From NCBI GenBank assembly GCA_900299355.1, contig OMJR01000125.1, positions 1-36,375 of the forward strand: a DNA stretch of 36,375 nucleotides, given 5' to 3'. The position numbers were made by a program, and so were the translations under genes. This document shows, piece after piece, positions 6,069 through 14,825 of this stretch; within the stretch, counting starts at the first letter, position 1, and the number at the start of each line of letters is the position of its first letter. The DNA comes from Anaerolineaceae bacterium (GTDB lineage: Bacteria > Chloroflexota > Anaerolineae > Anaerolineales > UBA11579). The notes beneath the pieces are model-generated. The model was given only the letters and a program-made list of their open reading frames with translations. It did not search any database and was not told the DNA's origin.

Positions 6069-6728
6069 CTAAGCGCGTCGCCACACCGCCTGGACCAGGA
6101 AATAGCCGCCAACCAGAATCAGCAGGCTGGGCCAGACCACTTCCCAATTGGCCAGCTCGCCGAGGTTGATATAGAGCCCGAAACCGATTAGGAAGATGGC
6201 TGGGAAGATGCCCCAGCTCATCCGCTCCCCATTGACGCGGATGAAGCTGAGCGCGAGGAAAGTGAGGCCCATGCCCAGGAAGAGCACGCCGCCGCCATCA
6301 ATCGGCGAGTTACCCAGCACATCGTCCACCACTGTTACCGCGGCGAGCGAGTACATCACCCCGGCGGGGATGATTGCCCACCAGTTGATGCTGTTGCGCA
6401 GGTAGGCCAGCAGGAAGGCGGTGCCCAGGAAGATAAATAACACTGCGCCGCCAATCGCACGGCCTACTGCGGGCAGGAAGAGGTTCAGCAAGCCTTCCAC
6501 CGCAAAAGCAGCCAGCACAAAAGCGATCAGGGCCAGCCACCAACTATCTAGGTCTTCCCGGTAGCGGCCATAGAAGTTCAGCGCTCCGAGTGCGAAAAGG
6601 CCGGTGAAGATCGCGTCGCCGGCGCCGCCGCCGAGGTAGCCGAGTTGTTGCAGCAGGATCAGCACGCCGGCCGCAATAAGCAGCGTGCCGAAGATTGTGC
6701 GTGAATTTTGTGTGATTTGTTTAATCAT
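6069..6728 (-). CDS. LiaF/LiaI-like multi-pass membrane protein (paralog of 7637..8281)
   Basis: GTLLIAAGVLILL start, WWAIIPAGV, WPSLLILVGGYFL; visibly colinear with 7637..8281. Confidence 0.8.
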   Translation of the reverse strand: MIKQITQNSRTIFGTLLIAAGVLILLQQLGYLGGGAGDAIFTGLFALGALNFYGRYREDLDSWWLALIAFVLAAFAVEGLLNLFLPAVGRAIGGAVLFIFLGTAFLLAYLRNSINWWAIIPAGVMYSLAAVTVVDDVLGNSPIDGGGVLFLGMGLTFLALSFIRVNGERMSWGIFPAIFLIGFGLYINLGELANWEVVWPSLLILVGGYFLVQAVWRRA

Positions 6729-6753
6729 GGTTGCTCCAAACGAGTGTCTGAGA

Positions 6754-7545
6754 TTAGCTAATGCGCACCGAACTCATGCCGGTGTCGATCTCAATCTGGG
6801 CTTTGTTGGCGGCGCTTTCGTAATCGGGGGAGGTGTAGTGCTTGCCATTGCGCGGGAAACGGGTGGTGTTGATCGCGATATCGGCCATGCCGGAGGACAC
6901 GCGGATGTCGGCCGCTACACCCTCGGGGACTTCGATCTCGATTGAGGAGGCACCCGAATCGATATCCACATGAGTGAAGCCCGCCTTAGCCGGCAGCACC
7001 AGCTTGGTGGAGGAAGCGCCGGTCTCCAGACGGAAATCTTTTACCTGCAGGTCGCGCAGGTCCAGCTCATTGCTGTTGGCCCCGGATTGCAGGCGCAAAC
7101 TGATCGGCACCTGGTCGGTGAGGCCGAAATCCCAGCGCAGCGGGCCGCCGCCCCACATCCACGGAAAGGCCATCCAGGCCTCCGAACTGGTGCTGATCTT
7201 CAAGATCGCTTTTCCCTTGCTTTGGCGGCTGTGGATGTCCACAGCGCTGAAATCGCCTTCGACCAGTTGGCCGAACGGGGCGGGACCGCGCAGGATGAGC
7301 TGGCCAGCGCCGTGTTCGATGCTGACGTTGGCTTGGCTGGCGTCTTCCAGCGGGAGGGCAATGTGCTCCATGTCCGCCGTTGCGCCACCCAGGCGCGGCC
7401 CGAGCAAGACAAAGATGCCCAAGAGAATAAGCAGGAAAGGCCAGATCATCGCGAAGTTGAAATCGATCAGGCCCAGGTTGTCAGCCAGGAAGAGGCCGCC
7501 GACACCGATCAGTACCAGGCCCCAGAACAATCTCCATGTTGTCAT
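6754..7545 (-). CDS. LiaF-like protein: N-terminal TM hairpin plus C-terminal beta-repeat (toast-rack/adhesin-like) domain
   Basis: LFWGLVLIGVGGLFLADNLG..IWPFLLILLGI followed by repeated xGAS/xGMA beta units. Confidence 0.8.
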   Translation of the reverse strand: MTTWRLFWGLVLIGVGGLFLADNLGLIDFNFAMIWPFLLILLGIFVLLGPRLGGATADMEHIALPLEDASQANVSIEHGAGQLILRGPAPFGQLVEGDFSAVDIHSRQSKGKAILKISTSSEAWMAFPWMWGGGPLRWDFGLTDQVPISLRLQSGANSNELDLRDLQVKDFRLETGASSTKLVLPAKAGFTHVDIDSGASSIEIEVPEGVAADIRVSSGMADIAINTTRFPRNGKHYTSPDYESAANKAQIEIDTGMSSVRIS

Positions 7546-7636
7546 ATCAAACTCCTAGATCCCAAACCTGAAGAGGAAATCCACATTGATTATAGGGCTT
7601 GCCCAGCAACGGCCCAGTGTCAGATGTCCGCTGTGC

Positions 7637-8281
7637 TTAGCCGCGGCGCAGCGAGGAAACCAGGAAATACAAGCCGCCCAGCACCAGCAGCGAAGGCCAG
7701 ATGTAATCCCATAAAGCTTGCTGGCTGAAGCCGATAAAGAGGCCAAACACCAGCAAGGGCAGGGCTGGGAAGATGGCCCAATTCATACGTTCGCCATCCA
7801 CCGTAAGGAAATTGATGATCAGAAAGGTCAAGCCCATGCCGATGAAAAGGATGCCAGCGCTATCAAAGGGCAGAGGGTCGACGAGTTCCTCGACTACCAG
7901 CATGGTGGTCAGCGAAAACAGCACGCCGCCGGGAATCAGGGCCCACCACATCGCACGGTCGATCGCGAATACCACCAGGAAGGCCAGTGCTATTACACCC
8001 AAGAGCAGCGCGCCGCCGAATTGATCAGCGAAGCCCAGCAGGGCCATCTCCGAGACTTTGAGCAGGGTCAGTGCGAGCAGAATGAGACCGGCGAGGGCGG
8101 CCCACCAGCGGCGGCGGTCCTGGGCGAAGCTGCTTAGAAAGAAGATCATGCCTACGCCAAATGAGAGGGCAAAAATTGGGTCCTCTAATTCGCCGCTGAT
8201 CAGATTCAGTTCCTGCAAGCCAAAGAGTACGCCAGCCAAAATGAGTAATAAACCAATCACGGTGCGCGGGTCGCGTCGCAT
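7637..8281 (-). CDS. LiaF/LiaI-like multi-pass membrane protein (paralog of 6069..6728)
   Basis: GLLLILAGVLFGL, WWALIPGGV, WPSLLVLGGLYFL. Confidence 0.8.
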   Translation of the reverse strand: MRRDPRTVIGLLLILAGVLFGLQELNLISGELEDPIFALSFGVGMIFFLSSFAQDRRRWWAALAGLILLALTLLKVSEMALLGFADQFGGALLLGVIALAFLVVFAIDRAMWWALIPGGVLFSLTTMLVVEELVDPLPFDSAGILFIGMGLTFLIINFLTVDGERMNWAIFPALPLLVFGLFIGFSQQALWDYIWPSLLVLGGLYFLVSSLRRG

Positions 8282-8340
8282 AAATGTCTCCTCGCTAGTG
8301 AGCCGTCATGATTATATTCGTAAAACAGGGGTCAAAAGTT

Positions 8341-9090
8341 TCACCGAACCCGGCCCCAGGCGTAATGCGTGGGCACATGCAACACGCGCTCGCCGCTCTG
8401 CCAGGCTTGCCGGTCGCGCTCCAGGAGCCCTTCGAGCGTGGCGGAATCGACGAAATCCTGCAGGTCATCGCGTAGCACGGAGTGCTCGATTTCAAGATCT
8501 TCCTCGGACAGTTGGGCAGTGGAAAGCATTTCCATCCGGCCGGTTTCGATCTCGGCCAGACCGGCGGCGCGGAAGAGTTGGCCCAGCCGCGCCCCCAGCA
8601 TCGGATCGGCGCCGCGGGCACGCAGCGCGGCGGTTTGCAGCGCGCCCAGTTCGGCCAAGTTGTCGGGCTTATCGATGCGTGCGCCATAGTCGGGCTCCGC
8701 GAAGGCGGCCACCACTCCGCCTGGGCAGGTGACGCGCGCTATTTCGGCTAACGCTGCGGCGGGATCCGCCAGCCAGAGCAGCACATAATGCGTGAAGGTC
8801 AGGTCGAAGGAATTATCGGGAAAGGGTAGCTGATGGGCATCGCCGCCCGCCAGGCGTAGCTGCGGCTGCTGGCGGCGGGCAATGCGCAGAGAGGGCAGAT
8901 CAATGTCCAGGCCGACGGCGGCGTTTGGGGCGGGGTAGGCGCCTAAGACAGCGCCCGTGCCGCTGCCGACCTCCAGGATCGGGCTGCGGGGTGTGATGCG
9001 AGCCTGCACGAAAAGGTGGTCGCGCAGGCGGGCAGTCCAGGTGGCCTGTTGGCGATAGCGGCGGTGGAGGGCGTCAAAGCTGGGGGGCAT
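8341..9090 (-). CDS. Class I SAM-dependent methyltransferase
   Basis: Motif I ILEVGSGTG, VGLDID, GDAHQLPFPDNSFDL, RVTCPGG. Confidence 0.92.
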   Translation of the reverse strand: MPPSFDALHRRYRQQATWTARLRDHLFVQARITPRSPILEVGSGTGAVLGAYPAPNAAVGLDIDLPSLRIARRQQPQLRLAGGDAHQLPFPDNSFDLTFTHYVLLWLADPAAALAEIARVTCPGGVVAAFAEPDYGARIDKPDNLAELGALQTAALRARGADPMLGARLGQLFRAAGLAEIETGRMEMLSTAQLSEEDLEIEHSVLRDDLQDFVDSATLEGLLERDRQAWQSGERVLHVPTHYAWGRVR

Positions 9091-9131: not shown

Positions 9132-10751
9132 ATGGCCCTCACATTGGAACCGCAATCGAAAACGTCTCTGACTCAATCGCTGCGCGATGGCGCGGCGGGT
9201 TTGTTTGGTGCGCTGGCGCCACGGCCGCCGGCTGCCCTCGGCTTGCACCACTACGATGTGGTGTTGCCGGATGGGCGCGAGATGCGCATCCATTTGCGCA
9301 TTGAGCCCAGCGGGGCGGGAGTGCTCTTTGTGGATGTCACCGATGTGGTGCATCTGAATCCTACTGCGGCCTATATGGCCCAGTTGGCGCTCGAAGAAGT
9401 GCCGATCGCGTCGGCGCGCGCCCAGGTGGCGGCACGCTACCAGGCGGTGCCCTTGGCCCAGATGGAACGCGAGCTGCGCCAGGTCTACGACATGATTGAG
9501 GAGTTCCGCCACCCGGAGGGCGATTGCCCCACCTGCCAATTGAGCAGCACGGTGGAGATGTCGCCGCTGTTCAGTGTGGAGGTCAACGCGCCCTACAAGG
9601 TAGATGTAGCCCTGACCTACGGCTGCAATAACGAGTGCCCGCATTGCTACAACGAGGCGGACCGGCTGGAGATGCCTTCACTGCCGCTGACCGAATGGTA
9701 TGCCGTGATCGACCGCTTGTGCGAACTGGGTGTGCCGCACCTGATCCTGACAGGCGGCGAGGCCACGCTGCATCCCGATTTGCCCGAGATCATTCGCTAT
9801 GCCGATGGCAAGGGCATGGTGGTGGGCCTCAACACGAATGGCCGGCATATCGCCCACAAGCCGTATATGGACGAGTTGGCCGCCGCGGGCCTCAACCATG
9901 TGCAGGTCACCCTGGCGTCCAATCGGGCTGAATTCCACGACGCGATGATGGGCACGACGGCCTTTGAGCAGACCGTGGCCGGGATCCAGAACGCGGTGGC
10001 CAGCAAGGTGCACGTGATTACCAACACGACCTTGATGCGCAACAACATGGATCACGCCGAGGAGATCATTGAATACATCTATGATTTGGGCATCCGCACC
10101 TTTGCGATGAACGGCATGATTTATTCCGGCGGCGGCTTTGCCCATCCGACTGCGATCCCGGAAGAAGATATGCCGCCGCTGCTGATCCGCGTGCGCGATA
10201 AAGCCAACGAACTGGGCATGCGTTTCCTGTGGTACACGCCCACCGAGTACTGCCGCATGTCGCCAGTGGAACTCGAGGTAGGCGCCAAACGCTGCAACGC
10301 GGGCGAATATTCGCTGTGCATTGAGCCCAATGGCGATGTGCTTCCCTGCCAGAGCTATTACGTCTCGGCCGGCAATATCCTGCACGACCCCTGGGAACAG
10401 ATTTGGGATGGCGAACTGTTCCGCTCGTTCCGCTACCGCGAAGAGGATCCCAAGGGATACGGCCTGCCCGAGAAATGCTGGACCTGCCCGGACCTGCCGC
10501 TATGTGGCGGCGGCTGTCGCATTGAGCGCGAGGCGCGCGACGGGGTGCGCGTAGCCAGCGACGGCGGCGGAGGCTGCTCAGGATGCAGCGGCAGCTGCGG
10601 CACCGGGGCGGCGGCCAGCCATGTGCGCAGCCATGCGCCCACCGCGGGCTACATTCCGCAGGGCGGCTTTGTGCCCAGCCCCAGCGCCACCAGCACCAAG
10701 GTACGCGCCAGCGGGGACATGAGTTTGATCGGGTTGGATGAAATTGGATGA
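9132..10751 (+). CDS. Radical SAM/SPASM enzyme with N-terminal PqqD/RRE-like domain and Gly/Ser/Cys-rich C-terminal extension
   Basis: CNNECPHC (CxxxCxxC), LTGGEA, SPASM Cys array CNAG..C..PCQ..CWTC..CGGGC; N-terminal VHLNPTAA..ARY..ELRQVYDMI winged-helix pattern; tail GGGGCSGCSGSCG. Confidence 0.93.
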   Translation: MALTLEPQSKTSLTQSLRDGAAGLFGALAPRPPAALGLHHYDVVLPDGREMRIHLRIEPSGAGVLFVDVTDVVHLNPTAAYMAQLALEEVPIASARAQVAARYQAVPLAQMERELRQVYDMIEEFRHPEGDCPTCQLSSTVEMSPLFSVEVNAPYKVDVALTYGCNNECPHCYNEADRLEMPSLPLTEWYAVIDRLCELGVPHLILTGGEATLHPDLPEIIRYADGKGMVVGLNTNGRHIAHKPYMDELAAAGLNHVQVTLASNRAEFHDAMMGTTAFEQTVAGIQNAVASKVHVITNTTLMRNNMDHAEEIIEYIYDLGIRTFAMNGMIYSGGGFAHPTAIPEEDMPPLLIRVRDKANELGMRFLWYTPTEYCRMSPVELEVGAKRCNAGEYSLCIEPNGDVLPCQSYYVSAGNILHDPWEQIWDGELFRSFRYREEDPKGYGLPEKCWTCPDLPLCGGGCRIEREARDGVRVASDGGGGCSGCSGSCGTGAAASHVRSHAPTAGYIPQGGFVPSPSATSTKVRASGDMSLIGLDEIG

Positions 10752-10756
10752 GTCTT

Positions 10757-10862
10757 GAGATTGGTGATTAGAGACTGGCGATTAGTAAGTGGTAACTGGT
10801 AATTACTAATCCTGCACGGTCAATCTCCAGTCCCGTGTCTCCAATTACTAGTTACGAATTAC
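10757..10862. repeat. Inverted heptamer array filling the intergenic space
   Basis: gagattg gtgatta gagactg gcgatta gtaagtg gtaactg gtaatta (10757-10805) and caatctc cagtccc gtgtctc caattac tagttac gaattac (10821-10862). Confidence 0.8.
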
Positions 10863-10872
10863 TGTCTTTTCC

Positions 10873-11727
10873 ATGGACACCTTAATCTGGATCATGCTGG
10901 CCTTGTTGCTGCTGTTCAGCTGGCTGCTGCTGGCTTGGCGGCGGCTGCATGGGCGCGAGTGGCAGCCCTACGTGCCGGCGCGGGCGCGTATCGAGGGCGG
11001 CGGCGTCAAACGCGGGCTGACCCCCGCCGAGGGAGCGATTCTGCTGGGGCGGCCGCTGCACGTGGCGCTGACCCTGGTGGTCTTCGACCTGTTGCGCAAG
11101 GGCTTGGTTGTGCAGGTTGAAGATGACCCGCTCATTGTGGAGGTGGTTGAGGCCTTCCGAACTCGCGGCAGCGGGCTCAGTGCGCAGGCGCGCGGCGACC
11201 AGCGCCGCCGGGCGGCCCAGGCGCTCAGCAAGCCGATGCATATCTACGAAGAAGCCTTCATCGAAATTTTGGAAGCAAACCCTGGCCAGCCGGTGCATAC
11301 GGTTGATTACAGCATCGCTATCCAGCCGCTGTTGCGCTATGTGGCCGGGAGGGTGGGCGGCTATGACCTTGAGGACAGCCGCGCCTACTACCGCTTGATT
11401 ATCGACCGGGCCCCACGTGAGGCACGCAGCGACGGCGTGCTGACTTTTGAGCGCCAGAAAGTGTTCGACCGCAATTTTGGCTGGGTGCTGCTGGGCGATG
11501 ATTTTGAGGCCGTGCTGGACCAGGAAGATTACAGCTATGAGCCGGTGTGGTGGAGAACGTCCGATGTCCTACGTCCAACGTCTTTTGCGCGGTGGGCGCA
11601 GGATGTGTTTGCGGCGATGCAGGCGGCGGTGCCGGAGGACCTGGTGGACGCTGGTTTGCAGCGCGAAGCCGACGGTACCACGGTGACCTTGATGAACGAT
11701 ATCGCCCGGGCGACGTTTAGAGGATAG
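10873..11727 (+). CDS. Single-TM membrane protein, paralog of the cytoplasmic half of 14825..16507 but without the Cys tail
   Basis: GGGVKRGLTPAEGAILLGRPLHVALTLVVFDLLRKG aligns with GHGIKRGLTAPEAAILLEQPMDKILTMILFSVVKKG; YYRLII/YYRNII; PVWW/PRWW. Confidence 0.85.
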   Translation: MDTLIWIMLALLLLFSWLLLAWRRLHGREWQPYVPARARIEGGGVKRGLTPAEGAILLGRPLHVALTLVVFDLLRKGLVVQVEDDPLIVEVVEAFRTRGSGLSAQARGDQRRRAAQALSKPMHIYEEAFIEILEANPGQPVHTVDYSIAIQPLLRYVAGRVGGYDLEDSRAYYRLIIDRAPREARSDGVLTFERQKVFDRNFGWVLLGDDFEAVLDQEDYSYEPVWWRTSDVLRPTSFARWAQDVFAAMQAAVPEDLVDAGLQREADGTTVTLMNDIARATFRG

Positions 11728-11772
11728 GGGACTGTTTGGCAGGCGGGGTCCGTGGTCTGATTATCGTTTCAG

Positions 11773-11820
11773 GGATTTGTCGCTGCGCTTGGCAACGCCA
11801 AGCGCAACGCTCGGAATGAC
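11773..11820. repeat. Solo palindromic repeat (GGAT..TCGC-hairpin-GCTCGGAATGAC family)
   Basis: ggatttgtcgc tgcgcttggc-aac-gccaagcgca acgctcggaatgac; same ends as the arms flanking the GIY-YIG gene. Confidence 0.7.
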
Positions 11821-11884
11821 GACCGATAGCAAAGCAATCGGATTCAGGAGAATGCGTTTAAAAACTAACGCGTATTCTCCACAA

Positions 11885-11914
11885 AAAAGAGGACTGCAAT
11901 TGCAGTCCTCTTTT
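11885..11914. terminator. Bidirectional intrinsic terminator
   Basis: AAAAGAGGACTGCAA/TTGCAGTCCTCTTTT perfect palindrome between convergent genes. Confidence 0.85.
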
Positions 11915-11916
11915 GC

Positions 11917-13077
11917 TTAGCAAGTCGGTTGGCTTTCGCCCGCTTCTTCGCGTTCGGCGGGGAACTCGTCCTCTTCTATGGGGGCGTCGATAACGGCCTG
12001 GATGGTCCACTCCGGCGGGTTGCTGATAAAGCGGCGGCGCTGGCGTTTCACATCCAGGATGTGGACGCCATCGCGCAGCGCGTCCACGGCGGCGAAGAGC
12101 ATGCGCTCCTCGTCGAGGAGGCTGACGGTCTGCAGCCATTCACCGAAGCCGGTGCGCTTGTCGGCGTCGGCTGGCAACTGGCTGAGGTCCACAACGTTGT
12201 GCGGCTGGAAATCGGCATCCAGCAGCAGCAGACGGCCCTGGCCGGTGCTGGCCACCTGGTAGCCGTCGCCCAGCCGGCGCAGGCTATGGGGGTGCAAGAG
12301 ACCCAGTTCGTGCTGGACGAACCTGCCGTCGCGCTGGATTTCGAAGGCCTCCGAGCGATGGAAGCCGGTAGCGATGATGGCGCCATCACGGCCGTAGTGC
12401 ACCCCATTGAGGTTCATCGGCGTGCGGTTGGTGGCCAGGCCCTCGCGCGGCAAATTGAGCGGGTCTGCGACCAGCTTGACTTTGGCTTCGGGGTGCTCAG
12501 CCTGCAAGGCGGCGGCCTGCTGCGGGTCACGGCTGACGTAGCTCTTGTTGGCTTTGACGTAGTTGAAGCCGTGGTCCCAGGCGTTCCACTGCCAGATGAC
12601 CTTGCCGGTAGCCAGCTCAATTTCCAGGATAGTGTCCAGGCCGGTAGAGGCGGTCAAAATCCGCTCGCCGTCCGCCGAGAATTCGATGGTGTGCAGGTAG
12701 CTCATCCAGGGGTGCTCAAAGGCTTCGCTCACCTTTTCGTCCAGGTCATGCAGCACAAAACCGGGGCCGGCGGTGTAGGCCAGTTGCCCTTCATGCAGGT
12801 CAATCTCAAACGGTTCGGTGCTATCCAGGGCCAGCTCCAGTGTGTCTTCACCGAATTCGTCGGTGTCGAGGCTGGTGAAGGCGATGTGGCCGTCGGAATA
12901 GCGCCGCTGGGAGACCTTGTCCACCGAAGTGAGGCCGTAGCTTTTATTGCCCTTGCGGCGGATGATTTTGGCGACGATGGCCAACTGGTTGAACCCCTTG
13001 ATGACGACAAAGGCGTTCAACCGCCGGCCGAGATGGTTATCGTATTCGAATTGGGATAAGTCTAAATGTTTGCTCAT
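11917..13077 (-). CDS. Hypothetical cytoplasmic protein, probable beta-propeller
   Basis: 386 aa with GC3-biased codons; repeated blade-like units (LHTIEFSADGERILTAS; LNGVHYGRDGAIIAT; PHSLRRLGDGYQVAS). Confidence 0.75.
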   Translation of the reverse strand: MSKHLDLSQFEYDNHLGRRLNAFVVIKGFNQLAIVAKIIRRKGNKSYGLTSVDKVSQRRYSDGHIAFTSLDTDEFGEDTLELALDSTEPFEIDLHEGQLAYTAGPGFVLHDLDEKVSEAFEHPWMSYLHTIEFSADGERILTASTGLDTILEIELATGKVIWQWNAWDHGFNYVKANKSYVSRDPQQAAALQAEHPEAKVKLVADPLNLPREGLATNRTPMNLNGVHYGRDGAIIATGFHRSEAFEIQRDGRFVQHELGLLHPHSLRRLGDGYQVASTGQGRLLLLDADFQPHNVVDLSQLPADADKRTGFGEWLQTVSLLDEERMLFAAVDALRDGVHILDVKRQRRRFISNPPEWTIQAVIDAPIEEDEFPAEREEAGESQPTC

Positions 13078-13435: not shown

Positions 13436-13592
13436 GGGGTTCCTTCCCTCGGCTTGGCTCGGAATGACGAGCAAGGTCACGAATACGCCAACGAAGGATA
13501 CCTGTGAAGCCTATTCGAAGGTCTGGCTTGTTTGCAGGCAGGAATATATGGAGGATTCTTCGGTCGCCACGATGTGGCTCCCTCAGAATGAC
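13436..13592. repeat. Cluster of palindromic repeats of the ...CTC(G/A)GAATGAC family
   Basis: ggggttccttccctcggcttggctcggaatgac (13436-13468) and ggattcttcggtcgccacgatgtggctccctcagaatgac (13553-13592). Confidence 0.7.
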
Positions 13593-13595
13593 GTA

Positions 13596-14825
13596 CTAAT
13601 GGGGCGCCTTCCCCCACACCTTCTCCCATTTATCTTTGACCAGGTTGCCCAACTTCTTCTTGGCGCCCTGGCCGGCGAGCACGTCGCCATCCGGCTCCAC
13701 GTAGAGCCAGGCCTTCCCAGTACCTGACTCAACCGCTCGTTGAGCGGTTGAGTTTGGAGTTTGCGGAGCAAACTCCATCTCACTTGGCGGATTTTCCAGC
13801 TCTAATCTAACCGGATTGAGTTCGGAGTAGGGCACCGGCAGGTCCCAAACCAGCGGCAAATCGATGTAGTCGGCGTGGTCGCGGGCGGCCTGCAGCCTAT
13901 CGGTGAGACCTTTGTCGGCCTCACTGAGCGAGACGGCGGAGACGCCGGCTTCCTTCAAGCGGTCGAGCAGTTGATTGGCTTGTTTGGCATTCTTCTCGGT
14001 CAGTGTCAAGTGTGCGGCGACGAAGATATCGTCGGCCAGCACTTCTTTCCAATAGGCGAAGCCCGCCAGGGATTCCCAGGTCTGCTTCTTGCCGGGTTGC
14101 AGCACGACCATCACGTGGTCCAGCCCCGCGTCCAGCAGGCTCTTGAGGTATTTGGTGTCGCCCAGTTTAAGGCCATCAGTAATCAGGCCGGTGACCATCC
14201 CGTGCGCTTCGCAATGGTCAAGCAGTTCGATCAGGTCTTTGCGCAAGGTCGGCTCGCCGCCGGTGAAGACCGCATGCGGCACGCCGGCCGCCCAGGCCTT
14301 ATCAATCACTGTCTTCCATTCTTCGGTGCTCAACTCTTTATCCACGCGCTTGTGGGGGGCGGCCTCGGCGGGCGCACCCTTGGGCAGCTTATAGGTCAGG
14401 GCGCAATCCAGGCGATAGGGCGCGCTGAGCGCCTCGCTGTAGGGGCGGTGGCGTTCGAAATCCAGGTAGGTTACCGGGTCCAGGTCGGGCACTTCAATCA
14501 AGGCCTGGATTTTCTCGGCGAAGGCGGCGTAATCGGCGGCCGCCTGGGATTTGCCCACCCGGTAGCGCTTGGCGATGGTCTCGGCCACCGTATCGGGCGG
14601 TGTCAGATGAATGAAATGGTAGGCGTATTCGGCGGCGGTCTGGTTGAGATGCAGCACGGTGGCGGCGTTGACCACCAGCACGGCGAAGCCATCCGGCTCC
14701 ACGCGCAGGTGCAGGCGGTAATTGAAGGGATGGCTGGGCGGGGCGGTGTAGGAATACATGCCCGGTTCCAGGCGGCTGGGCCGCTCGGGGTTTAAGCGTT
14801 CGCGCAAGCTATCTAGGATGCCCAT
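13596..14825 (-). CDS. Pseudo-radical SAM protein (RRE-like domain + rSAM fold, Fe-S cysteine motifs absent), paralog of 9132..10751
   Basis: Start ATG 14825 overlaps the upstream TAA (TAATG). RLHLRVEPDG..LHLNQTAA, APYRLDCALTY, FTGGEPTLR, YVEPDGDVL all align with 9132..10751, but CxxxCxxC is replaced by LPKGAPAE and the SPASM Cys are absent. Confidence 0.88.
   Translation of the reverse strand: MGILDSLRERLNPERPSRLEPGMYSYTAPPSHPFNYRLHLRVEPDGFAVLVVNAATVLHLNQTAAEYAYHFIHLTPPDTVAETIAKRYRVGKSQAAADYAAFAEKIQALIEVPDLDPVTYLDFERHRPYSEALSAPYRLDCALTYKLPKGAPAEAAPHKRVDKELSTEEWKTVIDKAWAAGVPHAVFTGGEPTLRKDLIELLDHCEAHGMVTGLITDGLKLGDTKYLKSLLDAGLDHVMVVLQPGKKQTWESLAGFAYWKEVLADDIFVAAHLTLTEKNAKQANQLLDRLKEAGVSAVSLSEADKGLTDRLQAARDHADYIDLPLVWDLPVPYSELNPVRLELENPPSEMEFAPQTPNSTAQRAVESGTGKAWLYVEPDGDVLAGQGAKKKLGNLVKDKWEKVWGKAPH
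13727..13777. repeat. 51-bp tandem double hairpin inside the pseudo-rSAM CDS
   Basis: ACTCAACCGCTC-GTT-GAGCGGTTGAGT and TGGAGTTTGC-GGA-GCAAACTCCA, both perfect stems. Confidence 0.85.

Follow-up and report, generated by a model that had tools for sequence, protein, structure and literature searches.

A radical SAM homolog without cluster cysteines, coupled to a Cys-tailed membrane protein in Anaerolineae, as a probable docking subunit

Genes at the locus

The stretch of DNA analyzed here (hereafter the window) covers positions 1–36,375 of contig OMJR01000125.1 of an Anaerolineaceae bacterium, and the gene under study, P0001, lies on its minus strand at positions 13596–14825. P0001 encodes a 409-residue homolog of radical S-adenosylmethionine (SAM) enzymes that has no cluster cysteines and is designated a pseudo-rSAM (rSAM, radical SAM). 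On the basis of its open reading frame (ORF), Pfam and BLASTP comparisons and a structural model, it consists of an RRE (a recognition element for RiPPs, which are ribosomally synthesized peptides that undergo post-translational modification), a partial barrel of the radical-SAM type, and the remnant of a truncated SPASM domain. It directly follows the gene of a 569-residue membrane protein with a cysteine-rich C-terminal tail, P0003 (14825–16534, minus strand), whose true start is likely the ATG at 16507 (MKRIW). As argued below, P0001 is maintained by selection and probably serves as a non-catalytic docking subunit on P0003.

The ORF of P0001 is translated over 409 codons without an internal stop. 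The signal that appears to couple it to P0003, GGAGG followed by a TAATG stop/start overlap, spans 14823–14839 on the minus strand. One base is common to the TAA of P0003 (14827–14825) and the ATG of P0001 (14825–14823), and GGAGG at 14839–14835, nine bases 5′ of this ATG, falls within the Gly codons of the ...CAGGGR end of P0003. A longer alternative ORF, which begins at 14900, gains just an out-of-frame reading of the Cys-tail DNA. The same artefact is carried by the N-terminus of a database ortholog, P0062.

The window also encodes an active RRE-rSAM/SPASM enzyme of 539 residues, P0002 (9132–10751, plus strand), which has the CX3CX2C motif, the SPASM cysteines and a Gly/Cys-rich C-terminal extension. 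BLASTP aligned residues 11–404 of P0001 with P0002 at 27% identity (E 8e-48), placing ALTYKLPKGAPAE of P0001 opposite ALTYGCNNECPHC of P0002 and GTGKAWLYVEPDGDVLAGQ opposite CNAGEYSLCIEPNGDVLPCQ. P0001 contains two cysteines (C141 and C205), compared with seventeen in P0002. In the alignments, the former radical-SAM cluster loop (residues 145–157, YKLPKGAPAEAAP; 14355–14393, minus strand) stands in place of CNNECPHC. All cysteines are replaced in the vestigial SPASM hairpin (residues 368–386; 13668–13724, minus strand), in which Y375, E377, P378, D379, G380 and D381 are invariant among 112 aligned orthologs. The C-terminus of P0001 is reached 23 residues after this hairpin, approximately 60 residues short of the CxxC...CGGGC block of P0002, and the second SPASM half is absent. 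By contrast with these losses, the TGGE motif is retained (residues 188–191 of a TGGEP at 188–192; 14253–14264, minus strand) and is invariant in all 112 aligned orthologs. Its GGE portion is what we take to be the SAM-contact motif of active enzymes. The PqqD-like RRE domain covers residues ~20–112 (14490–14768, minus strand), as assigned from the PqqD match, the model, conservation and the predicted interface, and its strand 56–64 (TVLHLNQTA) is the predicted docking strand.

These observations agree with a first-pass annotation of the DNA, which had described an intact ORF starting in a TAATG overlap right after a six-Cys tail, the loss of CxxxCxxC, of the SPASM cysteines and of the second SPASM half, and the retention of TGGEP and an RRE-like domain. 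Translation, BLASTP, Pfam and consensus alignments bear these descriptions out. The annotation had also compared P0001 with a paralog, which is the gene at 9132–10751. The full-length paralogy holds, but in a tree P0002 is not the direct sister of P0001 and is instead the window family's version of the active enzyme of the cassette described below.

Domain organization and predicted structure of P0001

P0001 matches the Pfam Radical_SAM profile (PF04055) with 44.2 bits against a cut-off of 29.5, over profile positions 22–120 of 166 only, and its match to the PqqD/RRE profile (PF05402; 21.7 bits) is just below the cut-off of 23.4. The SPASM domain (PF13186) is characterized by seven cysteines for two auxiliary clusters, including a CxxC...CxxxC block at the C-terminal end. 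No Pfam match to it was obtained for P0001; the aligned Cys positions are all replaced and the C-terminal block is absent. The three-Cys motif that follows strand beta-1 and ligates the [4Fe-4S] cluster of radical SAM enzymes is likewise missing from P0001, the site reading YKLPKGAPAE. Pfam assigned to P0002 a full Radical_SAM domain (93.4 bits) and a SPASM domain (45.8 bits). Among the NCBIfam families, P0001 matches PqqE best (TIGR02109; 86.3 bits, cut-off 381.35), and this match is limited to residues 132–256. The score of P0001 for TIGR04347, a pseudo-SAM/SPASM family, is 54.3 bits against a cut-off of 525, so that it is not a member, and active paralogs score higher (95–123 bits) than P0001 itself.

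The AlphaFold2 model of P0001 has a pLDDT (predicted local distance difference test) of 84.2 and a pTM (predicted template modeling score) of 0.86, with low confidence only at residues 348–365. It comprises a unit of three strands and three helices (residues 37–111), a portion of a beta/alpha barrel (residues 138–320) with a confidently modelled core, and, last, a short hairpin region. In the first unit, which would represent the RRE, a winged-helix-like fold that accommodates a peptide as a further strand, the strands are formed by residues 37–42, 48–52 and 56–60 and the helices by residues 62–72, 77–88 and 92–111. The best Foldseek matches in the PDB are SkfB (6efn, E 7.6e-12), SuiB (5v1s), PqqE (6c8v) and CteB (5wgg), with E values of 1e-10 to 1e-12 for SkfB, SuiB and PqqE. 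Judged by these profiles and motifs, P0001 is homologous to the radical SAM and SPASM families without belonging to them in function. Because it is unable to bind the radical-SAM cluster or either auxiliary cluster, P0001 would perform no radical chemistry on its own.

Cysteine loss and selection in the P0001 family

The ortholog set consisted of the 120 best database homologs of P0001 (51–100% identity, 277–431 residues). CX3CX2C was found at the rSAM site in none of the 120, and the sole regular-expression match to it, in P0062, corresponds to residues 4–11 of the mis-called N-terminus. Fourteen orthologs have no cysteine, 88 have one, 15 have two and three have more, so that 117 of the 120 contain at most two. 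The three cysteine-richer orthologs are P0062 with its mis-called start, the extra-Cys variant P0095, and P0067, which carries a CxxC...CxxC insert. The insert in P0067 (residues ~158–185) is zinc-ribbon-like and is located exactly at the former radical-SAM cluster loop. C141, on strand beta-1 just before the lost loop, is kept in 91 of the 120 orthologs.

A profile search of 1.84 billion representatives clustered at 50% identity retrieved 167 proteins at E ≤ 1e-30. Of the best 150 representatives, 70 are near-full-length proteins, and the motif is absent from 42 of these, among them all full-length matches down to approximately E 1e-83. In a tree of 59 rSAM-like proteins from the cassette, the 23 pseudo-rSAMs form one clade with an SH-aLRT (Shimodaira–Hasegawa-like approximate likelihood ratio test) support of 100 and a stem of 0.93. 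The cysteine loss is thus ancient and family-wide, and is no strain-specific decay of the kind that the first-pass annotation had asked to be checked across orthologs.

The same annotation had raised neutral evolution, which is not observed. Within the sister genus, dN/dS values by the NG86 method, which are rough because dS is high, are 0.08–0.31 for the pseudo-rSAM and indicate purifying selection; the corresponding ranges are 0.02–0.19 for the active enzyme, 0.04–0.32 for the Cys-tailed membrane protein and 0.10–0.32 for a tail-less paralog of the latter. The constraint on the pseudo-rSAM is therefore relaxed relative to the active enzyme yet far from neutral. An order-level comparison of the window with its relatives was set aside since dS was saturated or undefined for many pairs, and within-genus pairs were used only.

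Among the 112 aligned orthologs, 59 columns are invariant. They include H39, L40, R41, T56, H59, L60, N61, A64 and E66 of the RRE, as well as W250, Y258, W259, H272 and the DLPVPYS..NP block of the barrel. According to a consensus comparison, the RRE motifs YRLHLR and NAsTvLHLNqTA are common to the pseudo and active families, and the pseudo consensus differs from the active one by the changes TNG to TDG, TleS to lqP and TNTT to vHlT and by the deletion of a loop of ~14 residues. In some distant members TGGE is degraded (VGSDPQ, YGDEPT, LDVPEE), though HLR and HLN persist there. Because the RRE motifs persist where GGE degrades, the RRE appears to be the feature that this family cannot lose.

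A second cysteine-poor rSAM-like lineage, designated pseudo2, was found in another family of the class (L044, 4832–6208, minus strand; L097, 222–1541, plus strand). In its proteins a deletion affects the CX3CX2C loop and GGE is gone, and the last four SPASM cysteines are kept. The order at its loci is zinc-ribbon protein, active rSAM, pseudo, Cys-tailed protein and methyltransferase. In the free tree, pseudo2 is placed beside an active clade, rSAM2. Two independent origins of pseudo-rSAMs were considered and are not claimed, because the approximately unbiased test did not reject a single clade of pseudo2 and the P0001 lineage (p-AU 0.617; the constrained tree was better by 2.96 log-likelihood units).

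Gene order of the cassette in relatives

Comparison of the window with 38 loci from relatives revealed a cassette of five genes that is widespread in Anaerolineae. The first encodes a small zinc-ribbon protein for which two membrane helices are predicted, homologous to that at 16561–16914 of the window; the second, a membrane protein of ~550–620 residues ending in CACACACAGCACACAGGGR; the third, an active rSAM/SPASM enzyme with an N-terminal RRE; the fourth, the pseudo-rSAM; and the fifth, a class I methyltransferase homologous to that at 8341–9090. Outside the window's family but within its order, all 15 loci with a pseudo-rSAM have this one order. The usual gene after the Cys-tailed protein is thus that of the active rSAM, a point absent from the first-pass annotation, and the pseudo-rSAM, counted from the membrane protein, is normally third, after both. 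The methyltransferase is downstream of the pseudo-rSAM in 14 of these 15 loci (adjacent in most and ~1.5 kb off in two), and the fifteenth reaches the end of its contig. The gap between active rSAM and pseudo-rSAM is at most ~25 nucleotides, or an overlap, in eight loci, and 1–3.5 kb of inserted genes separate them in the other seven. At each of the 23 loci with a pseudo-rSAM, the homolog of 16561–16914 is the gene immediately upstream of that for the membrane protein.

In four loci from one family of the order (L083, L086, L089 and L090), a conserved insert of three lipid-metabolism genes separates the active rSAM from the pseudo-rSAM. The genes encode a CDP-alcohol phosphatidyltransferase, an acyltransferase of the lipid A type and a phosphatase of the PAP2 family. 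Two of these loci additionally have a nitroreductase, and one has an M20 peptidase.

The window's family has a different arrangement. At all eight of its loci, including the window, the pseudo-rSAM comes directly after the membrane protein, with the one-base stop/start overlap at seven and a 22-nucleotide spacer instead at the eighth (G235). The active enzyme is elsewhere, divergent from the methyltransferase, and is followed in the window and the sister genus by a tail-less paralog of the membrane protein, P0004. Two genomes of the family with one match have the active type ~180 kb away. By this gene order, the active enzyme in the window's family has apparently moved beside the tail-less paralog, with the result that the pseudo-rSAM is now the gene coupled to the membrane protein, none lying between.

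The window's genome (2.11 Mb, 89.8% complete) contains exactly one pseudo and one active copy, P0002 being the only active enzyme of its kind found there. Of 101 sampled genomes of the order, 58 have a match at E ≤ 1e-30 and 51 have two, the cysteine status having been checked at the fetched loci rather than across all 51. In each genome examined, the pseudo-rSAM is accompanied by a single active paralog. Loci from other orders of the class (L039, L040 and L042) have the membrane protein together with the active rSAM, and no pseudo-rSAM was found alongside them; at two further loci from other orders (L041 and L043), an rSAM and a methyltransferase are seen.

The membrane protein P0003 and its predicted docking to P0001

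From its N- to its C-terminus, the model of P0003 shows an N-terminal helix, an outer beta-sandwich, a transmembrane helix, a winged-helix-like and helical domain in the cytoplasm, and finally an amphipathic helix that precedes the tail. The tail as read from the gene is SSCACACAGCACACAGGGR and contains six cysteines, in CxC spacing on a flexible Gly/Ser linker; the ending found throughout the cassette is CAGCACACAGGGR. All 17 columns of its C-terminal part CACACAGCACACAGGGR (residues 553–569; 14828–14878, minus strand) are invariant in 26 of 26 aligned relatives, although relatives with these identical last 17 residues share only 40–63% identity overall. The tail is equally invariant at the three loci where no pseudo-rSAM was found beside the cassette (L039, L040 and L042), and its conservation is therefore independent of P0001. 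In the same alignment of 26 sequences, the tail has six cysteines in the window and the sister genus (CACACAGCACACAGGGR) and seven or eight in the other 21 (CACACACAGCACACAGGGR).

A second conserved element, YLPPKISIAGHG (residues 285–296; 15647–15682, minus strand), follows the membrane helix and is the predicted RRE docking site, on the basis of pair errors of 0.6–1.0 Å and of conservation. In this juxtamembrane motif, YLPPKISxxGxG, the residues Y285, P287, P288, G294 and G296 are invariant in 26 of 26 sequences. Residues 285–295 are disordered in the monomer model, as expected of a docking peptide. At residue 295, 21 of the 23 sequences from genomes with a pseudo-rSAM read GHG and the other two GNG and GQG, whereas the three sequences from loci without one read GAG, GVG or GTG, a small sample that is confounded by phylogeny.

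The complex of P0001 with residues 285–569 of P0003 was predicted in three runs with custom alignments, alongside three controls. The interface score ipSAE was 0.72, 0.83 and 0.83 (median 0.83), and that of the best of the three controls was 0.00. In the calibration of the tool, 58 of 80 solved complexes attained this mark, as did 2 of 110 mismatched pairs, figures that are only a rough guide here since our own alignments were used. The runs agreed in at least 54% of contacts, and the partner pLDDT was at least 65. The pairs with the lowest error join residues 58–64 of P0001 to residues 288–292 of P0003, and both sides are invariant columns. Further contacts are predicted between residues 114–128, 313–325 and 351–360 of P0001 and the helical domain of P0003. 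The confidently predicted interface, at the juxtamembrane motif, is ~260 residues upstream of the Cys tail. This prediction supports binding of P0001 to P0003.

Neither P0003 itself nor any of 26 relatives gave a significant Pfam match (the best being DUF2207 with E 0.99, in one of the 26), and NCBIfam yielded no match for P0003 and the relative from L082. Membership of P0003 in DUF2207 was considered, since a language-model search lists DUF2207 clusters at 0.93–0.97, and was rejected as hmmscan did not confirm it. For the outer domain, a fold search returned nothing beyond generic beta-sandwich proteins (N-domains of M1 aminopeptidases and an OST subunit; template modeling scores 0.22–0.24), which gave no functional lead. 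Two distant relatives of the membrane protein (L099, 8719–9957, minus strand; L101, 4310–6061, plus strand) have ends with CHSAC repeats (CHSACHSACHSACV) rather than CA repeats, and an rSAM/SPASM gene adjoins them. The L101 protein matches TIGR04222 over the juxtamembrane domain (E 1.1e-9, 38.3 bits, cut-off 43). This score is just below the TIGR04222 cut-off; P0003 itself has no significant match to TIGR04222 or DUF2207.

Other genes of the cassette and the window

The C-terminal extension of P0002 is rich in Gly and Cys (GGGGCSGCSGSCGTG...) and its end (...SGDMSLIGLDEIG) is conserved. P0002 is followed by P0004 (10873–11727, plus strand; 284 residues), the tail-less paralog of the cytoplasmic half of P0003 (25% identity, E 3e-18), which has the same juxtamembrane motif (YVPARARIEGGGVKRGLT). 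Its orthologs also come after the active rSAM in the sister genus, where its C-terminus (...NDIARATFRG) is conserved. The class I SAM-dependent methyltransferase (8341–9090, minus strand; Methyltransf_11, E 1.2e-20) is divergent from P0002. The gene at 16561–16914 (minus strand), first of the cassette, encodes the small protein with two hydrophobic segments, read as transmembrane helices, and a C-terminal CxxC...CxxC ribbon; its Pfam and NCBIfam matches are weak and do not attain the cut-offs. None of the cassette proteins scores as a member of a specific Pfam or NCBIfam family.

Three copies of CGTCATTCYGAG occur at 11810–11821, 13458–13469 and 13582–13593, all on the minus strand, against 0.28 expected by chance, and bracket a 386-residue ORF at 11917–13077. 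This ORF has no Pfam or NCBIfam match, and it looks like an insertion because no counterpart is present between the two cassettes in the relatives examined. Beside the methyltransferase, 6069–8281 (minus strand) encodes three membrane proteins. The product of 6754–7545 scores above the Pfam cut-offs for LiaI-LiaF-like_TM1 and LiaF-TM, and that of 6069–6728 matches LiaF-TM below the cut-off only. Homologs of these membrane proteins recur near the cassette in L074, L078, L080, L081, L083 and L086. A 70-residue ORF at 19737–19949 (plus strand) scores 20.1 bits for GIY-YIG, just below the Pfam cut-off of 22.6.

Short metatranscriptome contigs identical to the window were found in two libraries from two studies. 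Five pieces fall on P0002 and one on P0001 (13614–13797); others lie on P0003 (15005–15317 in both libraries and 16167–16441) and on the zinc-ribbon gene (16704–16881). They are a weak hint of expression, as DNA carry-over is possible, and the stretches without such contigs (8000–9050, 10808–12900 and 17126–18500) carry no weight.

Function of P0001

P0001 is maintained by selection and is inherited with the Cys-tailed protein and one active paralog. We consider it to be a functional, non-catalytic docking or adaptor subunit on this membrane protein, descended from the RRE-rSAM/SPASM maturase of the cassette, and rate the probability of this reading at slightly above one half (about 0.55). A non-catalytic scaffold or substrate-presenting subunit had also been proposed in the first-pass annotation, and that proposal fits the best-kept RRE, the fold shared with RRE-bearing maturases and the predicted docking (0.83, compared with 0.00 for the controls). 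In the proposed mechanism, the RRE strand 56–64 and the surfaces 114–128, 313–325 and 351–360 of P0001 would dock on the juxtamembrane segment YLPPKISxxGxG (residues 285–296) and the cytoplasmic helical domain of P0003. P0001 would remain there as a stable adaptor or holder, with a possible role in presentation, protection or timing. The active rSAM and the methyltransferase would have as their substrate the invariant CA-repeat tail, tethered by Gly/Ser linkers, and the active enzyme may recognize the same kind of docking motif. In the window's genome, the tail chemistry would be carried out by P0002, encoded 3 kb away beside the tail-less copy of the docking domain. Because two docking-motif proteins and two RRE proteins are paired by gene order in the window's family, a hetero-complex is suggested, in which the active enzyme would be brought to the tail in trans.

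Several points weigh against this assignment. Since dS is close to saturation in many pairs, the dN/dS values behind the inferred constraint are rough. In the predicted complex the Cys tail lacks a confident placement, and the prediction is thus uninformative either way on tail contacts. Solved structures of RRE–leader complexes, such as SuiB with SuiA, already exist, strand addition to an RRE being a structurally known motif, and the docking score may reflect likeness to these structures more than a real affinity of the two proteins. The shared RRE motifs imply that, in genomes with a single membrane protein and two RRE proteins, the pseudo and active proteins would be rivals for the same site, barring oligomers of the membrane protein, a situation that would fit a regulator equally. 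The invariance of TGGE among close orthologs suggests that some binding of a ligand by the barrel may persist.

The regulator would be a decoy or competitor: P0001 would sit on the juxtamembrane site of the active RRE and block, time or end the modification of the tail, or cap its product. The RRE motifs common to both families and the single docking motif per membrane protein are compatible with such a role. In the window's family, moreover, the pseudo-rSAM is translationally coupled to the membrane protein and would meet the new protein first, the active enzyme being encoded apart, or 180 kb off in two genomes. We regard this role as unlikely, as all 15 loci outside the family place the pseudo-rSAM between the active enzyme and the methyltransferase, in the manner of a biosynthetic subunit, eight of them tightly and seven with inserts of 1–3.5 kb.

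P0001 could also be a neofunctionalized enzyme or ligand binder, whose barrel, with TGGE and new invariant aromatic residues, would bind SAM or another small molecule for non-radical chemistry or sensing. None of the 112 aligned orthologs departs from the residues concerned (TGGE, W250, Y258, W259, H272 and the DLPVPYS..NP block), and the barrel core is confidently modelled. However, the motif changes listed above (TNG to TDG, TleS to lqP and TNTT to vHlT), together with the ~14-residue loop deletion, count against binding, and distant members degrade GGE yet keep the RRE. A separate methyltransferase is already present in the cassette. This role appears improbable to us.

A more speculative idea of the first-pass annotation was that the partner's tail supplies cluster ligands in trans, the Cys tail of P0003 filling the empty cluster site, perhaps with C141, to form a shared Fe-S site. 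The six tail cysteines in CxC spacing, the flexible Gly/Ser linker and the position of C141 just before the lost loop would suit such a site. This idea found no support and is very improbable, given that the tail is identical where no pseudo-rSAM was found beside the cassette, that 29 of 120 orthologs lack C141 and 14 have no cysteine at all, and that the predicted interface lies at the juxtamembrane motif. The CxxC...CxxC insert in P0067 indicates that the site of the lost loop tolerates quite different contents. Finally, a decaying pseudogene or a recent strain-specific loss, for which nothing but the missing cysteines speaks, is practically excluded by the open full-length orthologs across many families of the order, the monophyly of the pseudo clade (support 100), dN/dS well below 1 and the 59 invariant columns.

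The assignment of P0001 as a docking or adaptor subunit can be extended to the cassette as a whole, although we offer this extension only tentatively and consider it rather doubtful in its entirety. The cassette may constitute an undescribed maturation system, in which a full-size membrane protein would itself supply a RiPP-like recognition peptide, immediately on the inner side of the membrane, and an invariant C-terminal CA-repeat core. The RRE-rSAM/SPASM enzyme and the methyltransferase might remodel the tail, for example into a thioether-laddered or metal-binding knot, and the pseudo-rSAM, evolved from the maturase, might be a permanent reader or holder of the membrane protein. In the window's family, the system would have separated into two matched pairs, one of the Cys-tailed protein and the pseudo-enzyme and the other of the tail-less paralog and the active enzyme, with the same motif joining the partners of each, and tail catalysis would occur in trans in a membrane hetero-complex.

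Comparison with known systems

No description of the P0001 family or of the Cys/Ala-tailed membrane protein system was found in titles and abstract openings of the literature outside subscription journals and supplements. Within the same scope, no mechanism was found for any catalytically dead radical SAM relative, though such relatives are catalogued (TIGR04347). The surrounding cassette is possibly more novel than the pseudo-enzyme itself. It is a five-gene Anaerolineae system in which the apparent 'precursor' is a membrane protein of 550–600 residues with an absolutely conserved 17-residue Cys/Ala tail. P0001, for its part, is an unusually clear case of a pseudo-rSAM: its origin is dated, its place in the operon is fixed, each genome examined holds a matched active paralog, and a specific docking site that can be tested is predicted on a partner protein. 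If the tail is modified, the recognition logic of RiPPs (RRE and leader) would extend to the maturation of a large membrane protein, and P0001 would be a natural example of an enzyme turned into a binding subunit for its former substrate.

The RRE-bearing rSAM/SPASM or twitch maturases are closest to P0001 in structure and sequence family. SkfB, SuiB, CteB, PqqE with PqqD, and AlbA have the same domain order (N-terminal RRE, partial TIM barrel and C-terminal SPASM-type hairpin), and a partner strand on the RRE sheet is predicted for P0001 likewise. Unlike these enzymes, P0001 has no ligands for the radical-SAM or auxiliary clusters and no second SPASM half. Its predicted docking peptide is located inside a 569-residue membrane protein, whereas the RRE maturases bind a small leader peptide. 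TIGR04347, haloarchaeal by name, is curated as a 'pseudo' rSAM/SPASM-like family according to its NCBIfam name, and its members presumably lack the cluster cysteines; P0001 lies outside it.

Inactive subunits that bind a leader beside an active one occur in azoline cyclodehydratases, in which an inactive E1-like/RRE scaffold subunit (for example McbB with the YcaO protein McbD) has this role; fold and chemistry differ from those of P0001. The stand-alone RRE chaperones, such as PqqD and the PqqD-family proteins of lasso peptides, are non-catalytic, as P0001 appears to be, and hold their precursor through the RRE. The score of a P0001 ortholog against the lasso PqqD chaperone model (28.5 bits) is below its cut-off of 70. 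In contrast to such chaperones, P0001 retains ~300 residues of a vestigial enzyme body, with its own invariant residues and predicted partner contacts. We propose that P0001 may work like an RRE chaperone fused to the shell of a former enzyme.

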